This document shows, piece after piece, positions 14,157 to 49,626 of a stretch of 64,000 nucleotides of DNA. A program made the translations under genes and the position numbers. The notes under the pieces are model-generated. The model saw nothing but the letters and a program-made list of their open reading frames with translations. It ran no database searches and had not been told where the DNA came from. This DNA comes from Chrysomallon squamiferum (lineage: Eukaryota > Animalia > Mollusca), in assembly GCA_012295275.1 (NCBI GenBank), contig CM022679.1, positions 23,126,001 through 23,190,000 of the forward strand. Reading direction: 5' to 3'. Within the stretch, counting starts at the first letter, position 1. Each line of letters begins with the position of its first letter.

Positions 14157-14307
14157 TGCATGGGTTTGTGGAGTACTGAATGTGTCATCTTACTATGCAT
14201 GGGTTTGTGGAGTACTGAATGTGTCATCTTACTATGCATGGGTTTGTGGAGTACTGAATGTGTCATCTTACTATGCATGGGTTTGTGGAGTACTGAATGT
14301 GTCATCT
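14157..14307. repeat. 39-bp minisatellite (~3.9 copies)
   Basis: Unit TGCATGGGTTTGTGGAGTACTGAATGTGTCATCTTACTA, head-to-tail. Confidence 0.95.
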
Positions 14308-17854: not shown

Positions 17855-18054
17855 NNNNNNNNNNNNNNNNNNNNNNNNNNNNNNNNNNNNNNNNNNNNNN
17901 NNNNNNNNNNNNNNNNNNNNNNNNNNNNNNNNNNNNNNNNNNNNNNNNNNNNNNNNNNNNNNNNNNNNNNNNNNNNNNNNNNNNNNNNNNNNNNNNNNNN
18001 NNNNNNNNNNNNNNNNNNNNNNNNNNNNNNNNNNNNNNNNNNNNNNNNNNNNNN
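17855..18054. other. Assembly gap (200 N)
   Basis: Run of N. Confidence 1.
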
Positions 18055-19166: not shown

Positions 19167-19244
<78 letters not shown>

Positions 19245-26061: not shown

Positions 26062-29000
26062 TATATAAAATTAATTTAAAAAAATACATTATCATAGACA
26101 TTGGCAGATGAATAAAAAGATGACTACTCTCATCAGGTACCTACTCTCATCAGGTACCATTATGTGGACACGTTACTCTGCCAAAACTCCACAGCGGACA
26201 GTACAGAGTACATTGTAAAGCAATACTTGAAACCATTATAATTATTTATTTCCATTTTCAGTTTATTAGAGGTCAGATCAACAGCTAAAAAGCAAATTAT
26301 TCATGTGTTATTGGGATGTATGCCCTGATACGTTCTTTAGTCCTTGATACAGTTTTTGCACAAAAACAGAAAAAATATTTATTTGGATCTTAATTTTTCA
26401 CTTATTCTCGTTAAAACAAAAAGCATGTATGCAAACGAGTTTCCTATTTCAATTCTTTAAAAATCATTGCTCCATGCTATTTGAAGGTCATTCCTTCATT
26501 CAAGTTTCTTTTTTGTCATTATTTTTAAGTATCATGATGTAGTATCCATACAATTATTGAGCTTCATTGTGATATTTGATAACAAAGAATGAATGAACAG
26601 ACAAGTTTACCGTTTCAAAATGATTGTCACCAGGTATGTGCAGATAATCACCATGTGCACATAATCATTTTGCACAAATTGGCTGTTCCATTTAACCATA
26701 TCTCACTTGAGGATACGCACCATTTGCTTGCATTTCATTAGCTTATGTTATGTTATTTCTGGGATATTCCAGCATTAAAACACAGTCAGGAAATCCAAAA
26801 AACATTCTTGATTTTGAATATTTCCATTTGGTTGAGGTTTTCTATATCTGCACTGATTTTCAAAAAGTTACAAATTTTGAACTTGCTAGAATCACTTAAG
26901 TAGAAAACGTGACATGAATGAAAAATAGCTCGACATATTAAATTGTTTTTATCTCTTACTCAAGTTACTGTCTTTGAAATTCTATCAAGCACTGATAAGC
27001 AAGGCAGTTGTTATCTTGACATGTTATTAGAAACATGGTCAGATTGCTAAAGTGTCATGGTGGTCCAAACTTCCTTCTGAATGACTTCAATTGACTTAGT
27101 CTTCTTAAATTACTTACATATTACCTAAGAATGGTGGGAAAAAGATGTCCCTAATACATTGATATTTTTCATTCATAACTGTTTTGAGTCTCAGATGTTA
27201 TGGGATTTTAAAATAAAAATGGCCACCTGATTGCAAATCAAACGAGCACATGCTACTGTATCCTATGTTGGTTCAGTTTTTATGGATCATTCAACCAAAT
27301 TGTACGTTCCTTTTATATTGCTTTTTTCTTTTCTTTTTTTGTTTTAATATAAGAGTTTTCGATCATAAACCTCTGTTGTCTTGAATTGTGTTTAATTGTA
27401 CGAAAATAAGCAACTATTAATTATTAATTGATTTGAAATTACTGTTACTTCCATAATATTCAACATATTCACTTGATTTTCATGCCATTTTAATTTGGTT
27501 TCCAAGCTCTTTCCAGCTATGTTATTTGTTTTCAGATTTCATAATAACAATAATTTTATCATGGTTAAAAATACTAGTTAGTTCTAGAACTCATCAATAC
27601 CAGCAAACTTTATTCAGATAAAAATGTGTCTAAGAGATTTTGATTTTATTTTAAATTGCATTTATATATATATATATGGCTGCTACTAATTACTGACAAC
27701 AAGCATTAATAAAATAAGGAATGTCTCTGTATACTGTAACAAATTTGTTAAAGGGTAAACATAATTAAGACAAAGCTTTCACAAAGTTGTATGTCCTTTG
27801 CTATGCATTTTGAGCAAAGAACAAGAAGAGAAATTAGAAACCAGTTGTTTTGACAGTTGTTAGAGGTTGTTTTCTAAAGCCCACGATAGTCACAAAAGCA
27901 GTTACTCGATCCAGAAGTGCAGAAAATGAACTAATTTAAAAATAGACCACTTTTGAATTATGGGTGCTTTTAGTTTGTGTGACACCAATTTCAATTGATT
28001 GTTACTGTGTGCAGGTGATCTTTTCACAATAATTTATTGTTTGCATTAGTTTCATTTTCATTTATTATCATGTCTAAAACTAGTAAAAGACTAGTAGAAA
28101 TAAAACCTGCTGATGAAAGGTGTATTATGTCTATACAAGTATTTTAAGAACTTTATGTCAAAACAAAAATCAAACTGACGAGCTTTGGAAGTATATTAAT
28201 GTGTATGTGTTAAATACATTTTCATTCCTTATTTTTCATTTTAAGTAAAATTTTAGCCTGTCTCTAGAACCACCTGTGACACCAGGCTTGCTGAATAAAT
28301 GATTCAGAACCAGTATTTATAATGCTGAAGTCACTAAGGAAATAGGTTTTTCTTAGAATGTACTAAAAATCCAGTATTCCTGTGATTGTGAAGTTAGGTA
28401 ACAAGAAAAGCTGGAAATCTAACAAGCAAGCTGATACAGGGGAAAATAAAATATAAATAAAAGGAAATAATTGCTTTCTTTTCTTGAAAAGTTAAGGCAA
28501 TGAAAATTAATTCTGAGAAGAAATAAGTAATTTATATGATAATAATTGTTTATTATTTCTTCTCATTCTTGCAGTTGTTGTTGTTGTTGTGTTAGGCAGA
28601 GTATTATGTTATTTTATTTTTATTATTATCTTTTTTAATCGTTAATAACATTGACATTGATATCAGTGTCAGCGTCCATTTTACTTTTGGAAGAAATTAA
28701 GTGTTGAACACAAGCTGTGATGATAATTTAATTTTGTTTCATTGATTTATTTATTTATATAATTGTTATTATTATTATTTCTTTAAAAATATTACTCTTT
28801 TTGGGGAGGGAACCTTTTATTATTATTATTCTTATTTGTTTTTCTCTCCACAAAGCGGTGAATTTGCTGATATCATTTCAGAATCTTTTATATACTATTT
28901 TCTACTTGTTTCCAGCACTCTGAATGTTTTTATTACTTGTGTGTTCCTAAACAGCCTTGGTCTTCAATGTTTCTGATGTAACTAATGTAAGTACAAGGCT

Positions 29001-30906
29001 TGAAATTAACAGGCACAAGTAGCTCTAGAATGTTTCCGTTTGCACCTGAAATGCATTTGTATTATGTAACATCTTCGTGCTCATAAATAGTTCTTTTTTA
29101 CGTTCATCACAAAAGTTAATAAGAAGCATTTCAGCTTTAAATGTTAAACTAGTAACAAATTACGTAAAAGCTAGATGATTTGTAGGCCTATATCTATTCT
29201 GTTTTATTGAAATATGACGTAATATTAAAACGATATGAAATCTAATTTTGTCACTGTATGTATTATTTTCTCCATAAATAAATGGAAATAACTAATTTAT
29301 ATCAGTTATAGACAAGGCCATCACTAGCAGTAATCGTTTGTATTTTATCAGAACAATTTGTTTTCAGTTTTGGCTCTTACCCATGAATATCACAAAATGC
29401 CTCAAACATATCATAAATGCCTCTCTGCTAGATTCGAGCAATTTCAAAACTTGTATACTATATAAAGATGCAAATCTGCAGTGTCAGCAGATACCAAAAA
29501 CTTCATACTGGGTCTTGTAATCACAATTTCCAATTTTCTTTATGTCTACTTTGAACAGTTCATGGTGAAAATACTGAACAGTCACATATCATTAACAGTT
29601 ACTGAGAAACATGTATACATAATAACCTGAATGCAAACAAAAGCTGATGTATGTAAAGTTAGGATGTAAACAACAGTTGATGTACATAGCCAGTATTGGA
29701 AATTTAGGATGCATTTGTTTGTTAAGAGTAAAACTATAATCATTATTTACAAGTCTGTGAATAAGCATATAGTTAATGAAAATGCCTTTTAATGTCTTTG
29801 TAATTTTTCAATCTTTTTATTCTGACATTCTCAGTAGTGTTCTTGCTTTTCAGTACTGGTAAGAGGCTTTGTAACTGCACCAGCTGTCTAAATCAATTAT
29901 TGTGAACTAACAATGATTTTTGTTTATAATATGTTTATGCTCTGTATCCTTTGAGATAAACACACTCAAAGCAAATACTAAGCTAAGAAAACCCTTTTAT
30001 GTTTCTGCTTAAAATATGACTTACCACACCTGCACCTTTAATTGCCCTTAGTTTCATGATTATAGAGACCTTGTTGCCCCTGATTTGTTACTAATACCTC
30101 TCTGGAATGGACTCTGAGGTTTAGCTGTGTTTTTATATATGACGATTTTAACTTACGATCAATGCTTTTTGTCCTTCTAGGTAACATGTATGTATTTGAT
30201 GCGTGTCTAGTTTGTTGCATCAAATGTTACCAGCTATAATGTTAGAAAATTCAATGTCTGTATATAACTAGTAACACAGAAACAGGTTTTTAATTTGTTA
30301 TTTTGACTAAATCGAAAAAAATAGAAAAGAAAAAGAAAAAATCATAAAAAATGAAATTGTCAGTCATTAGTAATCCCAAATTGTTTACTGATCATAACAT
30401 GTTTCATAATGAAGAGTCATTTAATAAGGACAGACTATCTATTATTAATTTATATTCACATATTTAGAATACTTAAGTCTAAAAGATCAAGTTACATGTG
30501 TAAAAAAAGGCATGCTGTGCTATTTATAAACTTGTCATTAGTTGACTAGTGTTTATTTTAAAAAATTCAGTTTTCATAAAAGTTCTCTTTCAGAATAATA
30601 AAGTAGAGTATGCTAAAATTAGTATAACTTTTTAATTGTTTGATTTATCTTTAAAATGTATGCAGTTCTATAAACATTTTGCTTGATCTTGACGATTTAC
30701 ATATGTGCGTTCACACACACACACACACACAAAGTATATAAAACAAATTCTCGTATCATTTGATAAACAACCAGTCACTGTTCAATGTGTGTTCTCTGAA
30801 TCTGTATTTGGAATAATTTATCAATTTATTAATTTAATTTTTTATTTTCTATTTAAGTGAAAATTTCATTGTTGCTGTGTGTATTTTTTAACTGTTGCTG
30901 AGAACA

Positions 30907-30931
30907 ATGGCTTCTGCAGCTGATTTCAGTG
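30907..30931 (+). CDS. DED-kinase exon 1 (MASAADFS)
   Basis: ACAATGG Kozak-like context; phase-1 GTAAGT donor in frame with the DED exon. Confidence 0.65.
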
Positions 30932-33900
30932 GTAAGTATATCTGTCTGTAGAGAATGAGTCATTATGGCAAATGAAATAAGCATGCTGGTTGATAAGTGT
31001 GTATTGTCATACAAAGTACAAAACATTATTTTGGCTGATAACCATGAGCTGCTGAAGTAGTTTACCATTATCTGAAATAATTCTGATGTCTCAGAATGGT
31101 GACTTGCTTTTTCTATGTTATTTTCTTTTCAAGATGACGAAATGCGAGAAAAGCTTTCATCGATAGCAACAAAACTTGAATCTGAGGAACTAGAAAAATT
31201 AAAATTTATTTTTCGAGATGCTCTCAAGGCAAAGGACAAAATCAAAACAGCACAAGATCTTTTTGATATATTATGTAAACGTAAAATAATAAGTCGAAAA
31301 AAAATGGCATCCCTTGTAAAGGCTTTGGAGTTGATTCAGAGTGAAGATGCCATTGATATGATTGAGACCTTTTACAGAGAAGAGAAAAGGGACATCTTAA
31401 AAAATAAATCATGTGTTTCTGAATTTACTTCTCAACTTTATAAATTTGGTTCTGACATGAATGAAGAAGATGTTGAAAAATTGGCTTTTCGTTATAAAAT
31501 TAAACAATATAACAATCGATGGGAACTGCTGATTCTGTTAAGCAAGAAAGGTGATTTGAAAAATGTGAAAAGTATTGAAAAGGTTAAAAAAAAGCTGGGG
31601 ATTCCTTCAGCCGAGAGACCAGCACATCAGCAGGAACATCATCCAATTGAGCAATCATCAGAAACCGGTAATCATTGAATGAAATAAGAAAACAATAGTA
31701 TCTATGTTGTATATGAATTAGATATTTATATTACAAATATAATTTCCATTATAAACATAATTATAAAAATAAGTGAATTTAACTTCGTTGAATGTCACAA
31801 TAATGCAAGATAGTGTCGTAGGTACTTTGGGTGAAAAAACCCCAAAACATTGTGATCAGTAAATTGTGGTTGATAATTGTGGATAAAAAACAATAGTCAG
31901 TGACGTAAACATAGCACTAAAATAAATACATTGATTTCTGGTGTTTAGTTAATAATAATATCAACAGTATTTAATATGAAAAAAATATATAAAAGTTACT
32001 TGAAATCGTATGATGTATCAACGTAAAATCATTTTCATTTAAGATAAACATCGATGCGGTGAAGATCTAATCAAGATCATTATAATTATTTAGCAGGTCA
32101 AAATGCAGAAGCAGCTCAACGCATGCCTCAGCAGACGGATTATTCGCTGCCATCGTCAGAGGCTATTGATTCAAATTACCTGTGTAGCCAAATGCTACTG
32201 GCTGTGCATATCTATGGACAACATGGCAACATCACAATGTGTAAACATTGTTCACAGTGCAGACAACATTTGCCTGATGGTTAGTTTCATCTTACCTGAG
32301 AACTGTTGACATCACTTTAAACTGCTGTTTTAGCATTGTTAACATATTTACAACAACTGATGTTTTGTTTATATGTTTATTTTAATATGCATGACTTATA
32401 AGTAGTTTTTCTTGGTTCAGTCTCACAACAATTTGAGATCCTGTGAAATCCATTTGGGGTAAAAAAAAAAAAGCTAAAAAAATTTAAACATTGTGATCAG
32501 CAAATCATGATTGATAATTGTGGGTAATAACAGTAGTTAGTGATGTAAATAATATACAAAAATAAATACATCGGTTTCTACATCGGTTTGAAAAATATTT
32601 AATATATAAAAAAAATATATATTACTTAAAATCATGTGATGTATAAATGTAAACTCATTTTCACTTAAGATAAACATCGATGCACGGAAGATATAACCAA
32701 GATAATTATATCAAAAAAAAATGTGGCTGATGATTCGAATTCCCAGTATAGCCAAGAGCCAGTAGCTGTGTGCATCTATGGCCAACATGGCCAGATCACA
32801 GAGTTGAAACATTCACAGTGCAGACAACATTTTCCTGATGGTTAGTTTAATCTTACCTGAGAACTGTTGACATCACTTTAAACTGCTGTTTTAGGATTGT
32901 TAACATATTTACAATAATCGATTTGTTTATATATTTAATTTAATATGCATGACTTATAAGTAGTTTTTCTTGGTTCAGTGTTAACACAATTTGAGATCTT
33001 GTGAAATCGATTATGGGACAAAAAAAATAAAAAGCTAAATATATATATAAACATTGTGATCAGTAAATCATGATTGATAATTGTGGATAAAAACAATTGT
33101 TAGTTATGTAAATAGTGTACTAAAACAAATACATGGATTTCTGGTGCAGAGTTATTAATAATATCAACTATACTTCATAAAGAAAATAATTCTTAAAATT
33201 GTACAATGTATCAATATGAAATCATTTTCATTTAAGATAAACTTCGATGCAGTGAAGATCTAATCCAGATCATTATAATTATTATAGCAAGTCAAAATGC
33301 AGAAGCAGCTCAACACGTGCCTCAGCAGACGTTGGATTATTCACTGCCATCGTCAGAGGCTGATGATTCAAATTACCAGTATAGCCAAAAGACAGTAGCT
33401 GTAGGTTACGATGGCCAACCTGACCACACCACAACCAAGAAGATGAGAATAACAGAAATGAATGAATATTTTGATGAGAGTAATAAGTTAGGAGCCGGTG
33501 GAAATGGAACAGTTTATAAAGGTTCCGATTTTTATTGCATATTTAAATTTCATCCACATGTAGAAAATGTATCCAGTTGCTTAAGAAGTTGCAAAACATG
33601 TTTCATGAAGTCTTCCACTTTTATCTACCATAAGTAAAATTTAAATGTTGCCTACATGTTTAATTTTCTTTCTTTTCTTATACTTTGTTATTAACCAAAA
33701 ATTATTCCAAAATATATATATCAGAATAACTTGGAAATGTACAAAACAAATTCAGTCCTTTTATTGGTAGGATCCTGGATTCATATTAACTGAAACATTT
33801 CATTACTTGAACATACATGGTGCATAATTCACATTTTCTGTTATTTATTACAGGATGTAAGCAGTATAATGACTGTGACGTGATTGTCAAGGTTTTGCAT

Positions 33901-36806
33901 AGTCATAATGATAAAGAAAAGATACTGGAATCTTTCAAAATGGTAAAATTACCGCACATTTTTATCTTTTTATTATTATTGTTATTATAATTTTGTATTT
34001 GTCTGTGTTATCAGAAAGCAAAACAGTTATTTCCACTATAAGAAATCTTTTTCTTTATTTTTTATTATTTTATTATGATGCATACACACGTACAAAGCAC
34101 ATAGCAAAGTCTTTGCTGCTGCTATTGTGAAGCTTGAATATAGTTCAGGAGAGAACGGTAGACGATGGATCCTGTTACCCATTACAAATCACCTTTGCAT
34201 ATCTCTCCATGTTCCATGACATTGTAACTAAATATTTGTGTTGCAGCAAGAGAAAACCACGCTAAATGCAAATTTACAAATTTATGATTTATTTATTTTT
34301 CTGATTATAAAACTTGAGAAATAATTTCAGAAAACAACTGTCAGTGAATGCCCTCATAATGTACGTCAACGTGTTACGTCTGCATGAACATTTTACCAGT
34401 ACATACAGTGTTGTTTGGGTGTGTGGCTGCACAAGGTTCTTGATGTGCCTCAGAAAAATATTTGAATATGAGATATGTCTATTTTTTTCAGGAGATGATC
34501 TCATCTAGAAAAAAGCATCCTTTTTTGCTGCCATTGTTAGCTTATTGTGATGAGAAGCAAGGGATAAACAGGTAATTACAAAGGAAAAACTGGAATAAAA
34601 CTGGGATCAGGCCATTCAATTGGAACTGAGAGTTATTGACTTGTATACTAGTTTATCATTGTACTACCACTTGGCTCACAATTGAAACAGAAGCATAACA
34701 ATAAAATAAAAAGGACTTTTTTATTTTTTATTTATTTTTTATTTTTATATAAAATCGAAATGTTCATTATAATTAATGGAATATATATGGCAAATGTTCA
34801 AATCAAACACCCATTCTTACTTAGTTATGTCGAATATAGTCATTTGCCTTGTTATCACATGGGATTGGAAATGAATACTGACTGCTGAGCCTAGAAAAAA
34901 AAGTTTGGTGTGTATGTGTGTGCATGTCTCTTTGATTGTTAACATGAGTTTGATAATTATCTACAGAAGAGATTCCAGTCATGATTTTATTCAAGCGAAG
35001 GTTTAACAGATGGAACCCATCCACTCCCAAAAATGACACTTTGTCTGCATGAAGAAAATATTTATCTTTAATTTTAAAATATTTCATTCATTTTTAAAAA
35101 GTTTTGTTTTTGATATGTAGAATAAAAAATTAAAATGTTAAATAATCCATTTTTATTTGTTTAAACAGCTAGTACATGTTCTAACAAGACTGTTTGCCGT
35201 GGTTCTTACTATGGATTAAGGTCAAAGAAACAATTCTATGTTTTCAGGCAGTGCATTTTATTGTATCCATATATGAAGAATAAAGATCTTGATACCTGTT
35301 TAAAACAGGTGTGGGAAGGAAAAGCTACATTATTGTTGGAGGATCGTGTTCGCATTATGTACCAGGTGTCTGTAGGGTTAAAGTTCTTGCACACAAATCA
35401 TGGAAATAATGGGTATGCAATTAACATGATTAAGATAAAGAAAACAACTACATTAATTAATACTTCTTCAATTTAGTTAAATCATCTTGCTCTGAGTGTT
35501 TTTGCAGATAGGTAGATAGATGTATATATGTATAATAGCATGGGCATGCATATCTTTGTGTAAACAATCTGTACATGAATATTGCAGGATGGATGATTTT
35601 AGAGTTTGGATCTAAAACTACTATTTGTTCCTTGTTAGATAAAAATATACTAATTTATGTAATATGAAATATGGTTAAGTCAGAACTCATCTTGTATGTC
35701 ACAAATAATCTGTCTGTTGCTTTAGCTGTTGAATTTTAACATAAATATTTCCATGACATTTGTTTTCCCTCTCCCACAGAATACAGATCGTACACAGAGA
35801 TGTGAAAGCAGCAAATATTTTGCTTGATGACATGCTGAATGCTCGACTCAGTGATCCAGGAATAGCAAGAGAGCTTGATAGTCAGACATATGTGACAGTC
35901 ACAACTTCAGTGGGCACCCCAGGATATATTGATCCTGATGTTACAAGTTCAGGAGAGTTTAGACCAATAAACGATGTGTTTAGTCTTGGAGTGGGTGAGT
36001 AACTTGAAAAATTATTAATCAACACACACACACACACACACACAAACATTTCATCACGGAGGCATGCTTGAACACAAATTTACATACATTCAAACACATA
36101 CATACACATTCCTTTACAAAAGTGGCATTCCTGAATACAAATGTGTGTGTGTGTTTGTGTGTGTGTATATATATACATACATACATACATACATACATAA
36201 ACACACATACACACACACACATACCATACACACACACATACCATACACACATGTATACGTACGTGGTCAAAGATATTCGTTCAAGCCTGTATGCTGTAGC
36301 ATTAACATTTTATCGTGTGTTGTTTAGAAACCAACACACGCCACTGATTTATACAAAAACATTCACACTAGTCTACTCACATTACAATGATAATGTATAT
36401 ATGTATGTATATATCTCGCTCAGAAATAATGTTATTTTTAATTTCTTTTGATATTTTTGTATTTTTTCACAATCAGTATTGAGTTCTTTGACTGTTCTAA
36501 TTGTTGAAGTACATAATATGTAATGGTAAATCATTGTTTTCAGTTACTGTGATCATAAAACAATTGTCGTGACTTTGTATTTATGGCTTTGATGTTATTT
36601 TAAATTGGTGAGGAAAGCTTTCATCGCTGGAAGCTAATATTTCATTACAATACAGCCAAGTCTTAAGAAACATACACAGCAACACAGACATTAATAGTCT
36701 CTTGTTACTTTTCAAGCTAACTTGAAAAGCAGATATATTAATAGTCTCTTGTTACTTTACAAGCTAACTTGAAAAGCAGATTTTAAGACAAATCAACATA
36801 TCTAAT

Positions 36807-36845
<39 letters not shown>

Positions 36846-39652
36846 TGTTTATCTATGTTTGTATGTATATCAGTTATGATGACTTGTCTTAAATTATGCT
36901 TTTCTTATTTGTTTATAAATATAAATATCACTTAACTGCAATAACTTTAATAACAACAATCTTCACCATTTCTGTGAGCAACATTGGTTGGATATAAAAT
37001 AGTACATGGAGTACAAATTAAATGAAAATACAAAAACATAATACTTGAGAGTTTTTTTGTTTATTCTAAATTATAAAAATGTGTAACAGTTTAGTCCACT
37101 ATAATTCCAGTCTCTGAACAAATTGAATTGACTTTACGTTCCTGAATGTGTACTGAGTATTTTAGTTTGAGTGTTTTGTGGAACAAAAGTAGCTCTGTTT
37201 TTCAGGAGTTTTTTACTTTAGCTTTTACAGATGTATACCAGTATTTCAAGTCTCTGGACATACCAAATTGATTTATATTCTTGATTTTTATGTTGTTATT
37301 GTTTTATTCATTTTTTTTCTTTTGCTGTTGATATAACAAGAAATTATTTGACCATATTGAGGAAATATCCTGTAATTCATCGGTCCATTATGTTTTCAAT
37401 TTTTATTTAGTTTTTTTATTTTATTTTAGTTTTTTAAAGTCTGTTCACTGTTTTGTGGAATTGTTTATTTATTTGTCAAGTGAATTCACTGTTTTATGAA
37501 ATTATTTGTTATTTGGTGAATGTTCACTGTGTTGTGAAATTGTTAACAATTTAATGATGTATGTCCACATTTGCTATTTAAGTTACTGAGTGGAAACTTT
37601 TAAATATTGTTATGTTATTAATATCTGTGTAATAAATTACTACAATTATTTGTTCTTTTCTGGCATGTTGAATTTTTCACAATTTAATGATGTCTGTTCA
37701 CATTTACAATTTAAGTTACTGAGCAGAAACTTATATATTATGTTATTAATATCTGTGTAATACATTACTACATTTCAGTTATGTTGCAACTGCTTTTAAA
37801 TAAGCCAGCACAGATTGAAGTGGAAGAAAAAGGCAAGACAAAGAAGAAGAATTTATTCCAAATACATAGAAATATACTTGAAAAAGACATTCTGGAAGAT
37901 GTAAGAAAATTGTATTACTTTTCTTTTATTACAAACAAGTTGATTTGTTTCCTTCAGAAATCTAATAAAAAACTTTTTGTATGAGTCATGTCCCGTGAAG
38001 AAAGTTTCAGTTATAATTAAGTCCTGGTTTGTTTCACATTCAGTACAAGGGCTTGACCTTAGAAGTAGCTGGAATTCTAACCCCATAGTTCACTGAAATA
38101 CTACCTTTTTGTTCCGCCTCTTCAGACTTTTCATTCATCCATGTCTGAAATTCCTGCTTTTATGTGTTCTCTCTCTTGGCCCAAGGTGCTATAACTGTGT
38201 TCATTTTTTCTCTTGTCAGAATCACTGGGGGAAGTGAACAATAAAACAGTACATTTGTCACTCTTTTCATTTTTCCAAAATAACATGGAAGAAAAAGTAT
38301 TGTTTATAGACATCAGCTTGTATTTTATTGGGATTAAAATTGCAGACTTATTTCAAAACAATAAGATAGTTGTATTTTACTGGTCTTGGATTCAGGATAA
38401 AAAATATTTCATATTAAGCAAGGGATTTGTCAACCATCTTGCATTGTATGAAATTTATTTTTCAGTTTTTCTGCCTTCTTTTGTTTCATCTTTCAGGATG
38501 TCAAGAGAAAGGAAAATGCTTAGTCTTTTTTGGTTTCACTTAGTTGTGCTACAGTAGCTGAAATCATGCAATCTGGGTTTTTTCTTGGGTAAAATAATAG
38601 TATGAATTGATCAAAAATGCTCTTCACTGTCCGGCATATGTTGTTATTTTAAAAACCTGGTGTGCTGCCAGTGATAAAAGAAAGTTAAAGTCAAGGACTT
38701 AGACCCTTTAGAGTGCCGAAGTCTCAGCCAGAACTAATTTATCAAAAGTTATTATGGTTTCTCTCTGGTCATTGGGAAGATGAATGAAAAAGAATCACTT
38801 GTTATGACCGCTGATATGGTCACAGTTAAAAAACAAAAACAAAAGATGGGGAAGCTGAAAACCTAGCAGTGCTGTAGCAGTCCTTAAAGTTACACAAAAT
38901 ATCAGTAATAAAACTGTCAGATGCCATTCATCAATATTTTCTATGTTTGTATGTTTCACTTTTTCTGTATTTGTTCTTCTTTTCTTTTTTTCAGGCTAAA
39001 AAACAACACAAAGATTGGCCAGAAGAATTATTGAAGAAATTTGTCAACTTAGCTAGGCAGGCAATAGCTGTTGCTGATGATCGAATTACTCTTGATAGTC
39101 TCTCTGAACAGCTGCGTGTGAGTTGGTCTGCAGATATAAGTATCAAATTGAACTGCTTCAAGCAAGTTTGATTTGAGATATGATAACTGAAATTACACTT
39201 ATTTTATTTGCAGTCAGTTAGAAATGTGTTAATCATTTATTCTCCAAACCAGGAATATGGCATTTATTTTTAATTTAAAGACATTTGATTTAAATATAGG
39301 TTACAAGAAAAAAAATTAATTAGAAGTCATGTAATCTTATTCTCATAACCTTTCACTAACAGCAAGAAGCAATCATCTACAAAACTCACTAAAAAAGCTG
39401 GTAATTTCCAGACAATAAATTGATACTGAAATATTAAATGTATGTAGACCTTTCAGCTGATAGATTCTTGGTTACATCAGTTATGGCATTACTAAAAATA
39501 TCACTTTAATTAACCAGTCAGACTGTACGAAATAAAAAGAAAACGTTAAACCAAAAACCTTTTCAAAATTTCTTTTCTGACCTGTATACACTGATTATTA
39601 TTTTTTTTTATTTTAATTTTATTTAATGTTACTTAATTATTTTTATTTTCAT

Positions 39653-39683
<31 letters not shown>

Positions 39684-40995
39684 TTATTATTATTAGTAGT
39701 AGTAGTAGTAGTAGTAGTAGTATTATATGTCAATGAAGGGACATGTTATTACTTGCAAAATATTTGTGTTACTTTCAGTTCAGTGTGTTGTAAAGACGCT
39801 AACATTTCAAAATGTGTTTTCATTCTTTTATTATTTTTGTAACTGGGAGAGAAGGAGTCTATAATAAATCTTATTGCTTGTGAAATATTTATTTTAATTT
39901 TTTAACAGTTTGATTTATTTTTAAACAGGAACTTCTCATTAGTGCCAGAGCTGAATTGTGGAAATGTCCTTCACAGTTGACAAAGTGTGTGTCTTGTTTT
40001 GGCCAGCCAATAGGTTAGTTTTATCTTATCCGAGAATTGTTGATATCACTTTAAACTGCTGTTTTAGGATAGTTAGATGTCTTGTTTATATCTTTTTTTT
40101 TAAATATCTGGTGTTTCTGTGTCTCATTGTTTTCTTAATACTCTTACATACAAGACAGCATTCAAGCTGAAGTCATAAATATATAAATAAAACAGTGTTC
40201 AATGGATTTTTGAACAACGTTTTATACGTTGTAGTTAAGTCCATTCAGTTTTGTTGGGTGATCAAACCATGAAATAATTATTTTAGCAAAAATAAGACAT
40301 TTGAAAACAACAGATTTTAAAAAATATTTTTAAAAAAAGAAGATTTTATACATACATACATACATAAGTATATACAAGGTATCCCATAAAATTCTATACA
40401 TAGGAAAAATAAACAGTTTTATATGAAAAACCATTTTTATTTATCTATTATGCTCTACATGACTGCCATTATGTTGAAAACACATTTCAGTACGTGTCCT
40501 CCACTGCTGAAGAGCACGTTCAAGCACAGCTCTAGTTATGTTTGTAATTGCTTTGGTGATAAGTTGCTTGAGATGAAACCATATGTAGAAAATGTATGGG
40601 ACACCCTGTGTATACACCTGTGTGTGAGTGTATGTGTGTGTGTGTGTGTGTATGTTTTTGTTTGTATGTATCGTTCTAAATTTCAGAGAAGCTTAAACCA
40701 CATTCTCCAAAATGCAATGACAACTGTGCCCGCTTTTGCATGGACTGTCTTTCCAGAAGCAAAGAAAACCCACTCTTCTGTCCACAGCATGGGGAATGTC
40801 AACCATCAAATGGTAAGTACCTTAGCATTTTTTCTGTGTTGTCTTGTCTCTAACTTTGGTAATCTGTTTTATAACTTTAGAAATTATGTTCTCAGTATAT
40901 TTACTTTAAGTATCTTATTATATATATATATATATATAATAAGATACTTAAAATAAATATACTGAGAACATAATTTCCATCAAAGTTCAAGCACG

Positions 40996-41035
<40 letters not shown>

Positions 41036-41919
41036 AACATACATACATACATATATGTATACATACATATACATATACATATACAGTGGACTTCTTGGAA
41101 ACCTACCTTTTCCTAGCCCAGATTTTTGTAAAAACCAGCACCAATTCAAAGTTGTCTACTTCACATTTCTTATGTAAATTCCAGAACAAAACAACAATTT
41201 ATATAATAATTAGCATTGTCAACCATTGTTTCTGGAGTGTCATTTCTTAAACAACGACAGCAATTTTGCACACACAATAAACAATGATGTGATACTTTTT
41301 GTAATCAGTAAGGGCATCTAAATGAACAAGATTATTATTAGTGGGTGTTGATATCTAAGTGAATTCACTCATTTAGATTTAGTGTTAAAAAGCAGCAGTC
41401 TGCATAAATAAGTATGGGGCACATTTTGCATTGTCTTATTGAACACATCGTAATGGCAGAGCGATCTGAAAAACAGCAACATATCGAAATTTCTAAAGCA
41501 AGATTAATAGAAGAGTTTTCATCAAACCCAATTGTAAAGCAGAAATATATAGCTATCCAGGGCTGTGCTAGGCTAGATAAATAGAGGATGAAGTGAGGTT
41601 TTGAAAAGGTGAAATGGCACAATATGATATAACCAAGCTATTGTCACAGAACTAAAATTAAACATATATATTACATGTGTATACTGTTGTTCTGTTTGTA
41701 AAAAAAGAGGTCCTTTAACAAGACATTTTATACAGTCTCATGCTGTAAGTGATTAAAATTATTTAATAAAAGTCAATATATTTTTTCATGCTGAGGTGTC
41801 TTTAAACATTCATTCATTCATTTATTTAATAAAAGTTTTATTCTTACATTTGTTTAGATAGTCATGCAGCTTCTCCTTTCCATATCGGCCCTGAACTGAT
41901 CCAAGGATCCACGGACTGA
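30907..41919 (+). CDS. Tandem-DED / IRAK-Pelle-like protein kinase / Cys-His zinc-finger protein (13 exons, ~681 aa)
   Basis: Exons 30907-30931, 31134-31667, 32094-32279, 33288-33521, 33854-33942, 34492-34571, 35248-35412, 35780-35994, 37779-37900, 38995-39117, 39929-40013, 40687-40812, 41858-41919. All GT-AG, phases match, 2046 nt in total with no internal stop. Confidence 0.82.
31134..31667 (+). CDS. DED-kinase exon 2: tandem death effector domains
   Basis: REKLSSIATKLESEELEKLKFIFRD...AQDLFDILCKRKIIS...LVKALELI and VSEFTSQLYKFGSDMNEEDVEKLAF follow the caspase-8/c-FLIP DED1 and DED2 patterns. Confidence 0.85.
32094..32279 (+). CDS. DED-kinase exon 3 (symmetric phase-1 linker exon, possibly skippable)
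   Basis: Open frame GQNAEAAQRMPQQTDYSLPSSEAIDSNY...CKHCSQCRQHLPD; 186 nt. Confidence 0.55.
32722..32839 (+). pseudogene. Degenerate second copy of the linker exon
   Basis: ADDSNSQYSQEPVAVCIYGQHGQITELKHSQCRQHFPD with donor intact but acceptor and 5' half lost. Confidence 0.6.
33288..33521 (+). CDS. DED-kinase exon 4: linker plus kinase Gly-rich loop
   Basis: ...YFDESNKLGAGGNGTVYKG, typical IRAK/Pelle subdomain I context. Confidence 0.85.
33854..33942 (+). CDS. DED-kinase exon 5: subdomain II
   Basis: CKQYNDCDVIVKVLHSHNDKEKILESFKM (catalytic Lys in VIVK). Confidence 0.8.
34492..34571 (+). CDS. DED-kinase exon 6: subdomains III-IV
   Basis: EMISSRKKHPFLLPLLAYCDE. Confidence 0.8.
35248..35412 (+). 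CDS. DED-kinase exon 7: subdomains V-VIa
   Basis: QCILLYPYMKNKDL...RVRIMYQVSVGLKFLH. Confidence 0.88.
35780..35994 (+). CDS. DED-kinase exon 8: catalytic loop and activation segment
   Basis: IVHRDVKAANILLD...LSDPGIAR...GTPGYIDPD...DVFSLGV. Confidence 0.92.
37779..37900 (+). CDS. DED-kinase exon 9
   Basis: VMLQLLLNKPA..., continuing subdomain IX in phase. Confidence 0.8.
38995..39117 (+). CDS. DED-kinase exon 10: subdomain XI
   Basis: DWPEELLKKFVNLARQAIAVADDRITLDSLSEQL, with the conserved Arg; strong polypyrimidine acceptor. Confidence 0.82.
39929..40013 (+). CDS. DED-kinase exon 11: start of Cys-rich domain
   Basis: ELLISARAELWKCPSQLTKCVSCFGQPI, phase 0 to 1. Confidence 0.7.
40687..40812 (+). 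CDS. DED-kinase exon 12: RING-like Cys/His domain
   Basis: EKLKPHSPKCNDNCARFCMDCLSRSKENPLFCPQHGECQPSN, phase 1-1; a different frame from ORF 40423. Confidence 0.75.
40880..40977. repeat. Near-perfect ~98-bp palindrome centred on (AT)n
   Basis: GAAATTATGTTCTCAGTATATTTACTTTAAGTATCTTATT (AT)n AATAAGATACTTAAAATAAATATACTGAGAACATAATTTC. Confidence 0.9.
41858..41919 (+). CDS. DED-kinase putative terminal exon
   Basis: TTTAG acceptor, DSHAASPFHIGPELIQGSTD*; AATAAA at ~42103. Confidence 0.5.
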
Positions 41920-42609
41920 AACTCTCTGAAATGTACAGTGAAAAATGTTACTGATGAAAAAACGTTGAATATTCTTTAATTTGATTTTTATAGAATAGTT
42001 ACTTATTACCAACTTATTTTATTATTTAACCCGCAATATATATATATATATATTTTTTAATTTTTATCATTTTAGATATATATATATATATATTATTATT
42101 ATAATAAAAAAGTATTGCTAATTTATGTGGAAAAGTTACTGGTTATATGCTATGCTGATCTCTTTTATTTTTCACACTCCACAAATTTACAAATCACTTG
42201 TTTGTTACTGAGTGACCAATAAATTAATTGAAATTTAATGGGTAAATATAAAACAGCACATAATTGTGGTTAAAATTTCTAATCAAAGAATACATTTACA
42301 AACAGTTTATATATATATATATATATATTGGTTTAAAACTATATGAGATATTCGATATTGCCAAATGACTGAAACGATTCATAGTTTCACCATAGATTAT
42401 GATAAAAATATGTTACTTCTTTCATAACAATGCTAAGAGATCTTGGTTTCCTTATTTTTTCTCTTTTTTTAAAACTTTTTTCCTCTTTCTGTTTATGTAG
42501 GATTTTATAGGAAATTTATATTTTTGAAAGTTTTGTCACACAGCTACTGATAGCATTCATCAACAGAATAAGGATTGTGTCTATATGCTGTAAAATTATT
42601 ATTATTATT

Positions 42610-43594
42610 AAAAGGTAAAAAATAATTAAGACAGAGCTTTCAGAAAGTTGTATGCAAATTACTATGCATTTTTAGGAATCATTTAGAGCAAAGAACAAGA
42701 ACAAAAATTAGAAACCCCGTAACTTTGTTGCAGGTAGTTAATAAAGCTCATGACAGTCACAAAAGCAATTACTCGATCCAGAAATCCAGAAAAAGGGCTA
42801 TTTTTAAAATGGACTACTTTTAAATTAGGTGTGTTTTGTTTTAGTTTGTTTGATGCTAATTCAAGAGTGTGTGTTACTGTGTGGAGGTTATGCTCTCACA
42901 ATAAGTTATTGTTTGTTTTAGTTTTTCTTATTTATATTTATTACCATGTCTAAAACTAGTAAAAGACTAGCAGAAATGCAACTTGATAATGAAAAGTGGA
43001 TTCTTTTTATAGAGGTCTTTTAAGAAACTTATATCAATAAATATCAAACAGACCACACTTTACTTGTCATTTTAAGTAAAAATTTAGCCTGTATCTAGAA
43101 ATCTTGACCTCCTGTGATACCAAGCTTGCTGAATAAATGATTCAGAACCAGTACTTAAAGTGCTGAAGTCACTATAGAAATAGTTAGAATTTAGTGAAAA
43201 TTTATTAGCAAACTTTAATATTAAATTTTTGTGCATCAGTTCAGTATTCCTACTGTTGTGAGGTTAGATAATAAGAAACGCACGATATCCAATGATCTAC
43301 CAGGTGAACTAATACATGGGAAAATAAAATACGAATAAAAAAAATAATTGTTTTCTTATCTTGAAAATGAAAGACAATGAAAATCAGTTCTGAGAAGAAA
43401 TATGATAATAATTACTTTAAAAAAAAATTCATTAATGATTTTGTTTTGTCACCACTATTCTCTAAGTTGTGAAAAAAAAAAAAAGTCAAATTCCATTGTT
43501 ACTTTTGTCTCGTGATGTCACTGTCCAGAAATTAAAAGTGTTGAAGACAAGTTTGGATGAATATTTAAATTTGTTTCATTTTTTTGATTTATTG

Positions 43595-43639
<45 letters not shown>

Positions 43640-44260
43640 TCTTTTTAAGTATTACAATTTTTATGTTTTTGGGGGGTTAGTACATAATGGTGAAACTTCT
43701 AATATATTTTCAGAATCTTTTGTATACTATTTTCTTGTTGTTCCCAGCACTATCACAGTTTTCATCATTTGCGTGTACCTAAACTGATTTGTCTTAAATG
43801 TTTCCCACATAACTAATGTAAGTACAGGATTTGAAATTAACAGGCACAATTAGGTAATGAATGTTTCTTTGCACTGGAAATGCACCTGTATTAATTACTA
43901 TCTTTGAGCTCATAAATAGTTCTTCTTTACGTTTACCCAAAAATTAATAAGAAGAATTTTAGCCTTAAATGCTAAACTAGTAACAAATTACGTAAAAACA
44001 AGATGATTTATTTGTCTGTTCAATTTTATTTAAATAAGACCCAATATTAAAACTACACAAAATACATTATAATCACAACTGTCAATATTCTTTACATCTA
44101 CTTTGAACAGCTAATGATGAAAATACTGAACAGTCACATATAATTATTTAAACCTAAATGTAATCAATAGCTGATGTACATAAAGTTGTTATTCTGACAA
44201 AATGTTAATAAAATTGAAACTGTCACTCATTAGTAATCCAAAATCATTTCCTGATCATAA
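42610..44260 (+). repeat. Diverged duplicate of the 5' region (~27750-29640) of the DED-kinase gene
   Basis: Shared blocks such as GTCACAAAAGCA(A/G)TTACTCGATCCAGAA and GCTTGCTGAATAAATGATTCAGAACCAGTA. Confidence 0.8.
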
Positions 44261-46159
44261 TGTGTGATCAATAGCAGCTATTGTAAATGTTATGTAGCTT
44301 CCTGGCACAACGCAGCTGCAATCCATCTATAACTCTGTCTCATCTCAGCTTCTAAACTATTTTTGACACGCATTTTATCATCTGCTTTCAAGAAAATGTC
44401 CCAAAATTCGAAAATAAAGTCTGTTTTATCCCCTTGGTCAAGTTGTTCATTTGTGATATCTGTTTAAGAAAAATCTGTTTTTTTAATGACAACAGAAACA
44501 AATCGTAATTCTGATACTAATGAACTATGCTGAATCTCTTCAAGAGTGACAGCTTGCAGTTCACATGAAAGAGATTGTGCGGAACAAAATGAAATCAAAA
44601 TAATGTAAGAATAATAAGTAAAAAATAATTATAAGCAAACACTCAGATGATAATAAACTATTGAAATATTTTACATCATCTTAATTCTGATTTGGGGAAA
44701 ATTTTGAATGCTGTAATTACCTGTAAAAACACACATCGTTGAGCAAATATCCATATCTAGATAAAACCCACTGTTGGAGCTCAGTTTGATGTTGGAGATT
44801 GTGAATTATTACATACACCAAAACTCAGCACTGGACCAGAAATACTCCACTTCTTGTCGACTTGTCTTAGAGAGTAACAGAAAGTATTTAGAGGTGGTTG
44901 GAATGCCAGTTTACATCATCCCTATTCTGAATTACTTTCTTTTATTTTCAGTGCTTGGAGGTTGATAATAGATCAAGAATTCTATGAAGATGTTGGTGGA
45001 TTAAAATATTTGCCTATCTCTGATTTATAAAGCCTTGATATTTAATACCGGTACATATAAGAAGATAAGACGCTGGTTTCTCTTTGAAGTAAAACTATAT
45101 AAATTGACTTAGAGAAAAACATTAATTCACATTTGTATATACCAGAGGTTTTCAAACTTTTTCTAACTCTGTGTCCCTATGAGAAAATATTTCATGGGTA
45201 AGCTGCTACCGTATGTTCAGTTACTATGTGAGCAAAGTGCCCAGTGCTTTGACTGGATAAAATATAATGAAAAATTATTATTTAAGAAAAAAGAAAATAA
45301 TCATTATAACCACAAGTAATGATAGAACTGGCTAAGGTTTCGTCAACAGAAAGTTTGCACTATAGCTTCAGTTGATAAGCATGTAATCGTGTCGCTGTAA
45401 AGATTATATATAAAACTACAGTAACAGAATGTAATACTGACCCTTATTGGCCACGTATTTCTCCTCATTTTGTGGCATTGGAGCTAACAGAAGACAAGAG
45501 ACACACGCACACACTGGAAGTATATATATATTGCGCTGAATTTACTGTCGAAAAAAACAGGTTTAGTATTGAAGGTTATAAGTTTATAATTTTATTTTAA
45601 TTAATTGATTGTGTTTATTTTAAAGTATGTTAATATTTATTTAGCTGTTTCTATTTTAAGGTGGTATGTTAATGCATATTTTATAACTTTGTTTTACTAT
45701 TCCAGGTATTAGTGTCTTTTTTTCTTCCTGGTTTTGTTTTTCCTTTTTTTGTCTCTTAATACTGTATCTTAAATACTTTGATATTTATGAGTGTAACTAT
45801 TTTAATATAGCACTTTTTATGGTGAAATAAAGTAATTATATAAGAAAATATATTTGTTTTTATGTAAAATGGTCGATGGTATTTACTATATCTTGTGTGT
45901 CCATACCCCACAAAGAATGACTGAATAAAAAGCAGTCGCAAATGGTTCATTGTTAGTATCATATACTGCATCGAAACAATTATAAACTATAATTTAGACA
46001 TTTTGATTAAGTTTCCGCTAAGAATCTGATGCCTCAAAAATTATCACTATATAACGGGATCTGTGGTAAAAAGATTATTTTAAAAACAGTAATATAATTT
46101 TAATTTCTTTTCTTTTCCATTTTATTTTTTATTTATTTTATATTATTTATTGTTATTGA

Positions 46160-46195
<36 letters not shown>

Positions 46196-46659
46196 GCTTT
46201 ATTTATTTATTTTTTGTTCTTAAATACAGGGAAAAAGAAAACAAATCTAGTAGATTGGTTTCTCATAGTTATTTCATTTTTATCAGTAACCAGTTAATAT
46301 ATTGTAGTTGTGTCCCCTGTTAACTTTCAAGATACAGACATTTTACTGGCACGGAAGAGAAGTTTTAGTAAGTCATAGTTTCTTGTTTTAGTTAACAAAT
46401 ATTTACACGACCGGTTGACGGACCTTTAATTTAATTTAGTACTGTCCGCTATGGAGTTTGATGTGGTTTGACGTAAAAGATAAGAAATAAAACATCCCAA
46501 AAAAGGTTTCGTCGTTCTCAGCAATTTCTACTCAATAACAGACATCTATGTATATGAGGCATTGAATATAATTATCTATGACATATTTCCCCAAATTACC
46601 TTAAATAATCCATGTAGAATTGATTTAATTATGAAGGAATAGATGTTTAAAAGTTCGTA

Positions 46660-46781
46660 AACACTGATCGGCGTTCGACGTTGCCATCTCGGATTTCCAT
46701 CGGAAGTTTCCGTGACCGCTCGGAAACTGTGTGATGGGGTTCAACTGTTTTCTGAACTGTTTATGATTTATACTGATAAAG
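46660..46781 (+). promoter_or_regulatory. CpG-rich patch with kappaB/Ets-like sites ending in a splice donor; candidate promoter/first exon of the downstream paralog
   Basis: GGATTTCC (46691), CGGAAGTTTCC (46701), donor AAG|GTAAGG at 46782; downstream DNA is homologous to the 5' region of the DED-kinase gene. Confidence 0.3.
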
Positions 46782-47368
46782 GTAAGGATGGTTGTTCATA
46801 TTACCAAACCATGATGTTCTGCGCCTTTCCTAACTTCTTTTTCAACTTGATCAAACTTTTTAAACTGGATATTTTTGTGCAAATGCGGTCATAATAAACT
46901 AAAATTATGATTTGTTATAAGAGTAATCAATTTAATGTATTAACTTCTGTAGCTGGCAATGTTCCCAGTGTCAGAACCCAACAGAAATGAACGTTGAGGT
47001 GAAGTTTGTACCCATTGAATTGGCGAAATTCTGGAGGACTTTCCTCCATTGATATAATTTGTGTCATTACACGTTATGGACCTGTTGGTCCATGCTAATG
47101 ATTGACCTTTTTAGATTTTTATTTCCTTGAACAAGTTGAAGGGTATTAATATTCGAGTTTTTGTTTCGTTAGTATTTTTATATATTTTCCAAACAGTAAA
47201 TATCATGATACATAAAATTATTCAGCTTCATCTTCCTTTTCATTTCTTGACACGTGAATTGTGATATTCATAAACAACAGAGAATCAACAGGCAAATTTT
47301 GCATTTCAAAATGATCGTAATCAGGTATAAGCAGACAGACACATTTTGCACCAATTGCCTGTTCCACT

Positions 47369-47902
47369 GGGGTACAGAAAAAATGGCACCTTATTTATTT
47401 TTTCTGTAGTTGCTTTGATAAAAAATACTTTTGAAAATACTGATTATTCATGCAATATTGCTACATACATGTATATTAATATATAGCATCACTCAGCCAC
47501 TTGGTTTTATTTAATAAAATATAGTATTATATCAGAGTTTAATATTACACATATACATATACACACACATAATAAATAAGGTGCCATTTTTCCCTGGGTG
47601 CCATTATTACACGCATATACAGATGCTCTAGTACGTTCGAACATACAGATACAGATGTATGTAATTTAAATACACATAGCACAGTTAAATATCCTCCAGA
47701 ATGATATCATTCAGTCAGTTCAAACGTGTGTGTTTGTATATACACACAGACACATGCACACATATCTTTGAACTCACATAATATCATTCTGGAGGATATT
47801 TTAACTATGGTCTGCATATTTACATTAGGTACATGTGTATGAATGTTTATGTATGAACGTACATCTATGTACGCATGCAAACATATATATATGTGTGCGT
47901 GC

Positions 47903-47953
<51 letters not shown>

Positions 47954-48233
47954 CATGTGTGTGTGTATGTGTAATATTAAATTCTGCTATAATATTGTAC
48001 TTTGTTAAGCAAAACCAAGTGACTGAGTGATGCTATATATTAAAATACATGTATGTAACAACATTGCATGAATAAACTTTATTTTCCAAAGTACTTTTAA
48101 GATTTTTTTTAAAGCAACCATACAGAAAAAATAAATAAGGTGCCATTTTTTCTAAATGTGTACAGAGCCATTTCTTCCAGGTGACATTTTTTCCGATTGC
48201 CATTATTTCTGGTGCCATTTTGTTCCTATAACC
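47369..48233. mobile_element. Foldback/MULE-like non-autonomous element
   Basis: ~200-bp inverted arms (47378-47570 vs 47955-48152), an internal inverted pair (47660-47725 vs 47765-47830) and GCCATTTTTTCC subterminal repeats. The empty site is visible in the paralogous sequence at ~26680-26700. Confidence 0.75.
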
Positions 48234-49593
48234 GCTCGCTGAACAATATCTCGCTTGACGATGTGCACCATTTGCTTGCATTTCTCTAGCTTATGTTATG
48301 TTATTTCTGGGATGTTCAGCATAAAAACACAAACAGGAAATCCGAAAGCATTCTTGATTTTGAATATTTTGATTCAGTGGTATATCTCAGTTTCTGAATC
48401 TACACTGATTTTTTTAAAGTTTTTATCTAACCATATCCTAACAGGGCCTTGATCAAGCTGTGGAAAATTTTCTCAGTGATATTTAGATGTACTGTTTTTG
48501 TTTAAGTTAGAAAATTGGTCCTAACTTCCTAATTAAACCATGGGCCACAGTTTAGGTTATACCTACGTATAAATTTGCTGGTAGCTATTTTGTTACTTAT
48601 TATAATATTTTATACTGTTGTGCTATTAAGGTACAGTCTTTGAAAATGTCAGTAACATATTTACTATTTCCCTAAATAGCTTACTTTAATACAGTCTAAC
48701 ATCTTGTAATTAACTTGTATGTATCATTAAAGTAACTAAATATGTTACCCATTCATTTCTACAAATATTCCTAACAGTATGTATTAATTAAATATGTACT
48801 GTTAGTTAACTGGAATCCAATTACTGAAATCACATAGAAATTAACAGTCATTAGCTAGAGACAAAGGGAATTTTTGTCAGTTACGCTCTGCTGACTTCAT
48901 GGAAGTTCGTGACATATTTGTTTAAGTAAAAGGCAGGAGAGACCACGTGACAGACACACCCTCTGGCCTGTCGTAGACGTGCTTCACAGCCATTATTAGG
49001 CAATTTTGTTCGTAACTATATTTTGCGTTATCCTTGTTTAAGTCAGAAGCAGGGACAAATGGTGTCCAGTTTATGTATACTCTGTCTGATTTGTTGATCA
49101 ATTTGATGTAACCTGTATATGCTCCATAGAGAGTTTGATTTTATATATTTCTAACGTAAGCCGTTAGGGAAAATTAAAAGAACTAAGAATTATAGTACTT
49201 CATTCAACGCAACTCCCACTGAATAATAAGTATACATATGTAAAATAAATAATTATCTTTGAAATAGAAATATTGTTCTTTGTTTTGTGTTCGTAGTGGA
49301 TACTTGATATTATATACAGTTTATACCTGTAGTATATGCAAAATATGTATCTGTTATAATCAACCATCACAGTTTCTTAATTACACGGGCAGTGTGTCCA
49401 TCAAAAGGTGCAGTCCCTAGACAAAAAATGAACCATAATTTAATAGGGTCATTAGCCCTTGAAAGCTAACACTCATTAACAATATTGAAATGAAGCTTTT
49501 TATGAGTTCTAAATCTGTACTGTATTTTTAAGCAAGTTGCTAATACTCATGAATTTTAATTAATTAATTAATCGAACTAATTAATTAATTGAA

Positions 49594-49626
<33 letters not shown>

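Follow-up and report, generated by a model that had tools for sequence, protein, structure and literature searches.

We identified, in a 64,000-nucleotide stretch of the Chrysomallon squamiferum genome (assembly GCA_012295275.1, contig CM022679.1, positions 23,126,001 to 23,190,000 of the forward strand; hereafter the window, numbered from its first letter), a gene that joins a tandem pair of DEDs, an IRAK-like kinase and a finger of seven cysteines and one histidine (Cys7His). The exon chain, the domains and most of the splice joints were observed directly, as were homologous proteins that carry an additional caspase-like domain. In the reading that we prefer, at a probability of roughly 0.5, the gene is likely a shortened, protease-less copy from a little-known invertebrate family of immune or cell-death signalling proteins. 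Its DEDs would likely cluster with those of its own family and in that way activate or position the kinase, with no protease in the same chain.

An open reading frame chain on the forward strand runs from an ATG at 30907 to a TGA ending at 41919, and the existence of a real, spliced gene with exactly the boundaries given in a first-pass annotation of this DNA was confirmed. The chain consists of 14 exons separated by 13 introns, all bounded by GT-AG and compatible in phase; the phase-compatible chain described in that annotation therefore stood, but its count of 13 exons did not, because it omitted 32670–32840, which RNA joins to both neighbours. With splice sites read by hand and exons joined by coordinates, the coding sequence is 2217 nt long (738 residues), its only stop is the terminal one and no frameshift interrupts it. 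An in-frame TAA lies 18 nt 5′ of the ATG, and the frame also stays open when exon 3b, or both 3a and 3b, are skipped. All introns are 1.8 kb or shorter, and exons have a guanine-cytosine (GC) content of 38.7% versus 28.4% for introns, in a window of AT-rich eukaryotic DNA with 24–35% GC per 2 kb. The exons are as follows.

30907–30931, + strand: exon 1, coding part (MASAADFS); RNA joint 30930–31133.
31134–31667, + strand: exon 2, tandem DEDs; Pfam DED match, cFLIP alignment, structural model with Foldseek.
32094–32279, + strand: exon 3a, linker repeat 1; RNA joint 32278–32669.
32670–32840, + strand: exon 3b, linker repeat 2, in frame; one RNA contig joins 3a, 3b and 3c.
33288–33521, + strand: exon 3c, third linker repeat, with the glycine-rich loop of the kinase (GAGGNG); RNA joint 33472–33852.
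33854–33942, + strand: exon 4, kinase beta-3 lysine K396; sequence and homologue alignment.
34492–34571, + strand: exon 5, alpha-C glutamate E414 and KHPFLLPLLAY; RNA joint 34568–35245.
35248–35412, + strand: exon 6, hinge with Tyr446 (LLYPYM), aligned to LVYPYM of BAK1; RNA joint 35409–35779.
35780–35994, + strand: exon 7, HRD (D502), N507, DPG at residues 520–522 and GTPGYIDP; Pfam Pkinase, E=4e-15.
37779–37900, + strand: exon 8, kinase C-lobe; RNA joint 37900–38995.
38995–39117, + strand: exon 9, kinase C-lobe; RNA joint 39117–39929 in all three runs.
39929–40013, + strand: exon 10, kinase end and finger residues C668 and C671; RNA joint 40011–40685.
40687–40812, + strand: exon 11, finger residues C686, C690, C694, C697, C708 and H711; two-homologue profile, E=3e-13.
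41858–41919, + strand: exon 12, proposed 20-residue tail and stop; sequence only, the least certain exon.

Exon 3c ends at a weak donor (GTTCCG), and the letters between the ends of its RNA joint are not known; exon 12 is absent among the RNA rows listed and has no convincing counterpart in the homologues.

The splice evidence came from contigs of three RNA runs, all of one study, placed on 30500–42100; we took joints alone from these runs, and no conclusion on habitat or expression level (index words 0.14 in run X1, next to none in X2 and X3). Ten of the 13 modelled joints were seen (1–2, 3a–3b, 3b–3c, 3c–4, 5–6, 6–7, 7–8, 8–9, 9–10 and 10–11), including that between exons 7 and 8 (35993–37778) in all three runs, whereas joints 4–5 and 11–12 were absent among the RNA joint rows listed and the exact joint 2–3a was not seen. 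A 721-nt contig contains exon 1, the whole of exon 2 and then sequence matching 33368 onward, which shows splicing from the DED exon into an exon of the linker type, though not exactly to 3a. The junction predicted from 31667 was thus found as a passage from the DED exon into linker-type sequence, but not as an exact 31667–32094 joint among the rows listed. Some contigs are identical to the window and others only about 90% so (exon 11 showed 0 differences in 121 nt, exon 2 showed 9 in 535 nt), which indicates that more than one copy is present. At the 5′ end, RNA preceding 30856 resembles window positions 30189–30210 with no exact match, and we do not claim a 5′ untranslated exon; one X2 contig ends at 40814, two letters beyond exon 11, which fits intron retention or a next exon starting with GT; because contigs do not show transcript ends, it was not used.

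Exon 2 both scores and folds as a DED pair. DED1 (approximately residues 13–90) matches Pfam PF01335 with 51.2 bits (E=1.5e-13), above the cut-off of 35.9; DED2 (approximately residues 105–163) has no Pfam match of its own, and the best PDB sequence match of the exon, cFLIP, aligns into DED2 (E=1.4e-4). An AlphaFold model of the pair from a nine-row alignment, which contained other tandem-DED proteins and so favoured a tandem-DED fold, reached a predicted local distance difference test (pLDDT) value of 87, and Foldseek matched it to the tandem DEDs of caspase-8 and cFLIP, the top three rows having TM-scores of 0.64–0.70 over 163–170 columns. The tandem DEDs of the first-pass annotation are thereby supported, DED1 by Pfam and DED2 by the cFLIP alignment and the model, and no Death domain (PF00531) was matched by Pfam at E up to 1. 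DED2 is short, with four helices in the model; it reads F127-R128 where cFLIP has the Phe-Leu patch, and the RxDL motif is not kept in the window protein. An exhaustive search with exon 2 returned 17 matches headed by two proteins of the gastropod Gigantopelta aegis, XP_041362677 and XP_041364588; in the DED pair these two reach 90.7 and 77.5 bits versus at most 46.2 for every other DED protein, and likeness is 35–68% within the family versus 20–23% to human caspase-8 and cFLIP. When longer proteins were searched with the DED exon through a word index, none of the 2809 candidates matched.

The kinase keeps the catalytic lysine (K396), the alpha-C glutamate (E414), the HRD aspartate (D502), the asparagine (N507) and the magnesium-binding aspartate (D520), all five of which are retained in three of three family members, from molluscs and an annelid. 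Its description as a complete kinase was correct as to these residues, but left unremarked that DPG replaces DFG, so that the regulatory-spine phenylalanine is a proline. This D-P change occurs in all three members (DPG in the window and Gigantopelta, DPS in the annelid Owenia fusiformis) versus none of 202 other stored motifs, mostly from plant kinases; the Gigantopelta kinase additionally lacks the first glycine of the glycine loop. Tyr446, which we take to be the gatekeeper, aligns with the tyrosine in the BAK1 motif. The closest solved relatives of the family kinase are plant receptor-like kinases (RLKs), then IRAK4, then RIPK4 and IRAK1, with approximately 99–126 bits for plant RLKs and IRAK4 versus 75.5 for RIPK4; judged by these matches the kinase belongs to the RLK/Pelle/IRAK group, in line with the IRAK/Pelle type proposed for it. 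The three family kinases form one branch with a Shimodaira-Hasegawa-like approximate likelihood ratio (SH-aLRT) support of 98 in a quick 26-row tree, the rows of which were picked from the matches of this analysis and include no animal IRAK. In the available passages of PMC7955167, a tyrosine gatekeeper is named for IRAK3 and IRAK4, and the pseudokinase IRAK2 also has a proline at the DFG site, reading HP.

The Cys/His-rich tail noted previously is real and conserved in two homologues: it ends C-x2-C-x10-C-x2-H, and all eight ligands are kept in three of three members. Pfam has no match for this tail, nor any RING match in the window protein or in the Gigantopelta and Owenia homologues; HHalign of the finger to two RINGs gave 0.9%, and the ESM Atlas returned no usable match for the finger alone. 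Because the window finger spans two exons, we modelled that of Owenia (pLDDT 58.8), for which the best structural rows were mostly RING or RING-like (best Z 3.7, root-mean-square deviation 5.4, 69 aligned), with no Foldseek match at E up to 0.001. A weakly RING-like finger is plausible, and an E3 role is putative.

The homologues place the window gene in a larger family. A search with exon 7 returned XP_041362677 as the first of 51 matches (69% identity), a protein with the order CARD, DED pair, long linker, kinase, finger and Peptidase_C14 (32.8 bits against a cut-off of 21.4), which is 49% identical to the window protein across kinase and finger (403 columns) and 35% identical in a 230-column alignment from the DEDs. 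The Owenia protein CAH1794974, which covers 98% of the query in a profile search (among the best 120 of 3043 matches, nearly all plant kinases), has a weak TIR (E=0.057), a DED below cut-off, the DPS kinase, the finger and a caspase-like domain, and is 35% identical over 386 columns of kinase and finger. In both full-length homologues the finger is followed by G-H-K-N and then by a caspase-like domain, whose His and Cys stand in motifs of the dyad type. This arrangement, with the protease directly after the finger, gives the window gene the look of an older DED-kinase-finger-protease gene that was cut short, and not of a fresh fusion between a caspase-8 prodomain and an IRAK kinase as proposed earlier; that DEDs and kinase sit together in one protein is most likely. 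The Gigantopelta paralogue XP_041364588 is a DED-DED-protease form lacking kinase and finger and 68% identical in the DED region (it has no PDB sequence match), so the family already occurs in split forms that share one DED type. Animal caspases characteristically carry a QACxG motif; it is absent from the protease domain of the three database proteins, which scores best on a bacterial EACC1-type caspase model, below cut-off. The caspase-fold domain of these animal proteins shows SGH/VGH and D/N-T/C-C motifs. With one gastropod and one annelid member, the family would be old if the Gigantopelta and Owenia proteins are orthologues; the few species found may reflect loss or limited searches. Judged by its nearest relative alone, the window DNA is likely molluscan; no cephalopod protein appeared among the matches listed for exon 7, exon 2 or the profile, which speaks against an octopus origin suggested by base composition. 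The ESM Atlas additionally gave, as a lead, a cluster of 92 proteins with kinase and Peptidase_C14, commonest in arthropods (score 0.93, 202 shared features).

Exon 11 ends exactly where both homologues enter the caspase-like domain. Searches of the window by tblastn and two profiles detected neither a protease exon nor a CARD exon; the protease profile (three sequences, a 300-residue domain) gave a best E of 0.81 among 2898 open frames, and as controls the finger was recovered at 3e-13, exon 8 at 0.008 and exon 9 at only 0.71. The window extends 23 kb beyond exon 11, and promoter/exon-1 repeats that belong to another copy begin near 52.4 kb. Read-through of intron 11 would lengthen the protein by no more than 13 residues. 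At its N terminus, the window copy also lacks a CARD or TIR.

Under the preferred reading, the DED pair would oligomerise, and its most likely partners are DED pairs of the same family carried by an upstream adaptor; such partners are probable because the DEDs within the family are far more alike than they are to human caspase-8 or cFLIP. Clustering would then promote trans-autophosphorylation of the kinase, by analogy with IRAK4 in the Myddosome, which in members of full length would license their own caspase-like protease. A copy without protease, CARD or TIR would be left with a kinase or scaffold output, and it could act on protease-bearing copies as short cFLIP acts on caspase-8, by diluting or capping them.

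Several observations weigh against this reading. DED2 may not polymerise, since it is short and has Phe-Arg in the Phe-Leu patch. Among the contigs listed, none runs from DED to kinase, the three runs represent a single study, contigs derive partly from other copies, and in one of them the codon of the catalytic K396 reads Asn. The Owenia DED region has no BLAST match to the window gene and falls below the Pfam cut-off, so that a shared DED origin is shown for the gastropod only. The search for a protease-bearing paralogue covered the window, and the profile search that yielded no protease exon recovered exon 9 only at the E value given above. Finally, 40 of 107 difference rows against the RNA contigs were listed, giving 35 classifiable changed codons, and 31 of these are non-synonymous versus approximately 75–79% expected under neutrality; against a neutral expectation of 21.5–24.9% synonymous changes, P for four or fewer is 0.10 or 0.04, and 0.19–0.31 for the DED and kinase exons alone, in a comparison without polarised changes and with contigs that may come from paralogues. 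These codon changes fit relaxed selection and diversifying selection alike.

The absence of any sign of purifying selection in that comparison would suit a young, partly decayed duplicate that is transcribed under relaxed selection without a maintained function, as would the apparent loss of the protease and the locus itself, which is unstable, with a broken paralogue upstream (20055–21170), tripled linker exons and eight further exon-1 copies. We nevertheless regard decay as improbable, given that the 2217-nt frame is intact, that every catalytic residue and the full set of eight finger ligands persist at an overall identity of about 50% to the gastropod homologue, and that the excess of amino-acid changes is also compatible with an immune gene under diversifying selection. 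Still less probable, in our view, is an incomplete 3′ model in which exon 11 continues into caspase-like exons that are too diverged or lie outside the window: the stop of exon 11 at the protease entry of the homologues, the absence of exon 12 among the RNA rows listed and the limited sensitivity of the searches for short, diverged exons would all agree with it, but the protease profile stayed at E=0.81 across 2898 frames in a window reaching 23 kb further, introns of this gene do not exceed 1.8 kb, and the repeats of the other copy already start near 52.4 kb.

Two further alternatives concern what the domains do. The DED pair could dock on FADD/caspase-8 filaments, bringing an active kinase and an E3 finger in a RIPK1-like manner, as the first-pass annotation envisaged. 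The match of the model to caspase-8/cFLIP tandem DEDs, the RING or RING-like character of most top structural rows of the homologue finger, a BIR-domain gene 20 kb upstream and the presence of FADD and DED caspases in molluscs (available passages of PMC11463336) are in keeping with this; however, the nearest DED relatives are same-family proteins and not caspase-8, the Phe-Leu patch of DED2 and RxDL are not kept, the finger matches reach only Z 3.7 from an Owenia model of pLDDT 59, and the kinase ranks with plant RLKs and IRAK4 above RIPK4, so we consider FADD docking unlikely. We put slightly less weight again on a pseudokinase or very weak kinase in a protein acting solely as a DED scaffold or decoy. 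Proline replaces the regulatory-spine phenylalanine in all three members, IRAK2 reads HP at the same site, the Gigantopelta protein lacks its first glycine-loop glycine and one RNA contig carries K396N; yet the lysine, alpha-C glutamate, HRD aspartate, asparagine and magnesium-binding aspartate are kept in three of three members, unlike in IRAK2 and IRAK3 as given in the passages of PMC7955167.

Taking the preferred reading further, we tentatively propose, as a rather unlikely possibility, that the family is an undescribed spiralian switch for death or immunity built as a single chain: a swappable CARD or TIR input, a private tandem-DED polymer, an IRAK-like kinase with the D-P motif, a finger of RING-like type and a caspase-like protease of bacterial type. 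It would be tuned by split paralogues, the Gigantopelta form contributing protease only and the window form kinase only, as the pathway's own cFLIP.

The surroundings of the gene were also surveyed. Within it, exon 3a is 63% identical to exon 3c over 52 residues, and 32238–32390 and 32755–32935 resemble 39941–40108 (approximately 89–90% over 63 nt), such that linker exons 3a and 3b, at their 3′ ends and in the introns behind them, are similar to exon 10 at its end and to the intron behind it, which suggests an internal duplication or conversion. Upstream, a degenerate paralogue at 18055–21270, directly preceded by a 200-base assembly gap (17855–18054), contains exon-1 copies at 18164 and 20055 and an exon-3c-like piece at approximately 20780–21042 whose 5′ frame is broken; neither a DED exon nor any later exon of the kinase was found in this paralogue. 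Downstream, 52378–64000 comprises about 6.5 head-to-tail units of 1.78–1.79 kb, 98% identical and resembling the upstream region plus exon 1, with six intact 25-nt phase-1 first exons (MANEPEIC) at 54002, 55796, 57575, 59361, 61142 and 62924 and no DED exon; these are possibly alternative promoters of a paralogue beyond the window, or an assembly artefact. Non-coding blocks at 26566–29432 and 42545–52867 lie on either side of the gene and share 67–82% identity, as would fit a tandem duplication of the locus at an earlier time. The window additionally holds a BIR (inhibitor of apoptosis) exon at 10067–10498 (Pfam E=1e-18), 20 kb upstream of the DED-kinase gene, and arrays of a 39-nt unit at 14156–14307 and 15522–15647 (98–100% matches).

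The first-pass annotation recognised no named gene with this architecture, and we found none in the searched literature, whose coverage leaves out most subscription journals and bioRxiv supplements; neither the architecture nor the accessions are described there, and the architecture is apparently undescribed. Death-fold shuffling is frequent, and this architecture is absent from the available passages of PMC2575513, PMC8195603 and PMC11507063; the accessions in the PMC11463336 supplement likewise do not include the three homologues. Several standard components of death-receptor signalling are missing from molluscs and annelids, and passages of that paper report that TRADD, PIDD and PYCARD were not found in lophotrochozoans. 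Since shuffled domains are a common feature of invertebrate immunity, and since no more than three kinase-bearing members were found, the surprise is limited. The full-length family is the more interesting object than the window copy: DEDs with an IRAK-type kinase, and a caspase-like protease unlike animal caspases, make it a candidate for a missing death-receptor branch in molluscs and annelids, and its conserved D-P change offers a direct test case for kinase function without the DFG phenylalanine.

Judged by the features that define those groups, the window gene is no IRAK, caspase-8 or RIPK. The gene model has no TRAF6-type PxExx(aromatic/acidic) motif. Like IRAK1–4, Pelle and Tube, the protein combines a death-fold adaptor, a low-complexity linker and an RLK/Pelle-type kinase with a tyrosine at the gatekeeper position (IRAK architecture from passages of PMC7955167), but it has two DEDs in place of one death domain, DPG, and a C-terminal Cys7His finger; placozoan and cnidarian IRAK-like kinases without a death domain are described in passages of PMC6321704. 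It shares with caspase-8, caspase-10 and cFLIP a tandem DED fold in the prodomain position, yet has a kinase after the DEDs and no caspase, a short DED2 with Phe-Arg, and 20–23% identity. RIPK1 likewise pairs a kinase with a death-fold domain near DED complexes, but there the kinase comes first and the death fold last, whereas the window kinase is internal and of a different kinase family; an amphioxus RIP1b is reported to carry a DED. Kinase-prodomain caspases of Macrostomum and earthworm, placed in caspase trees in passages of PMC11463336, and the Atlas cluster resemble the full-length homologues in having kinase and caspase-fold protease in one chain, but no DED is reported for them, and the protease of the DED family scores best on the bacterial EACC1-type model, below cut-off. 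Closest are the database relatives themselves: XP_041362677 and CAH1794974 share the D-P kinase, the same finger and DEDs before the kinase, XP_041362677 and XP_041364588 share the same DED pair, and these proteins add a caspase-like domain and a CARD or weak TIR, neither of which the window copy has.

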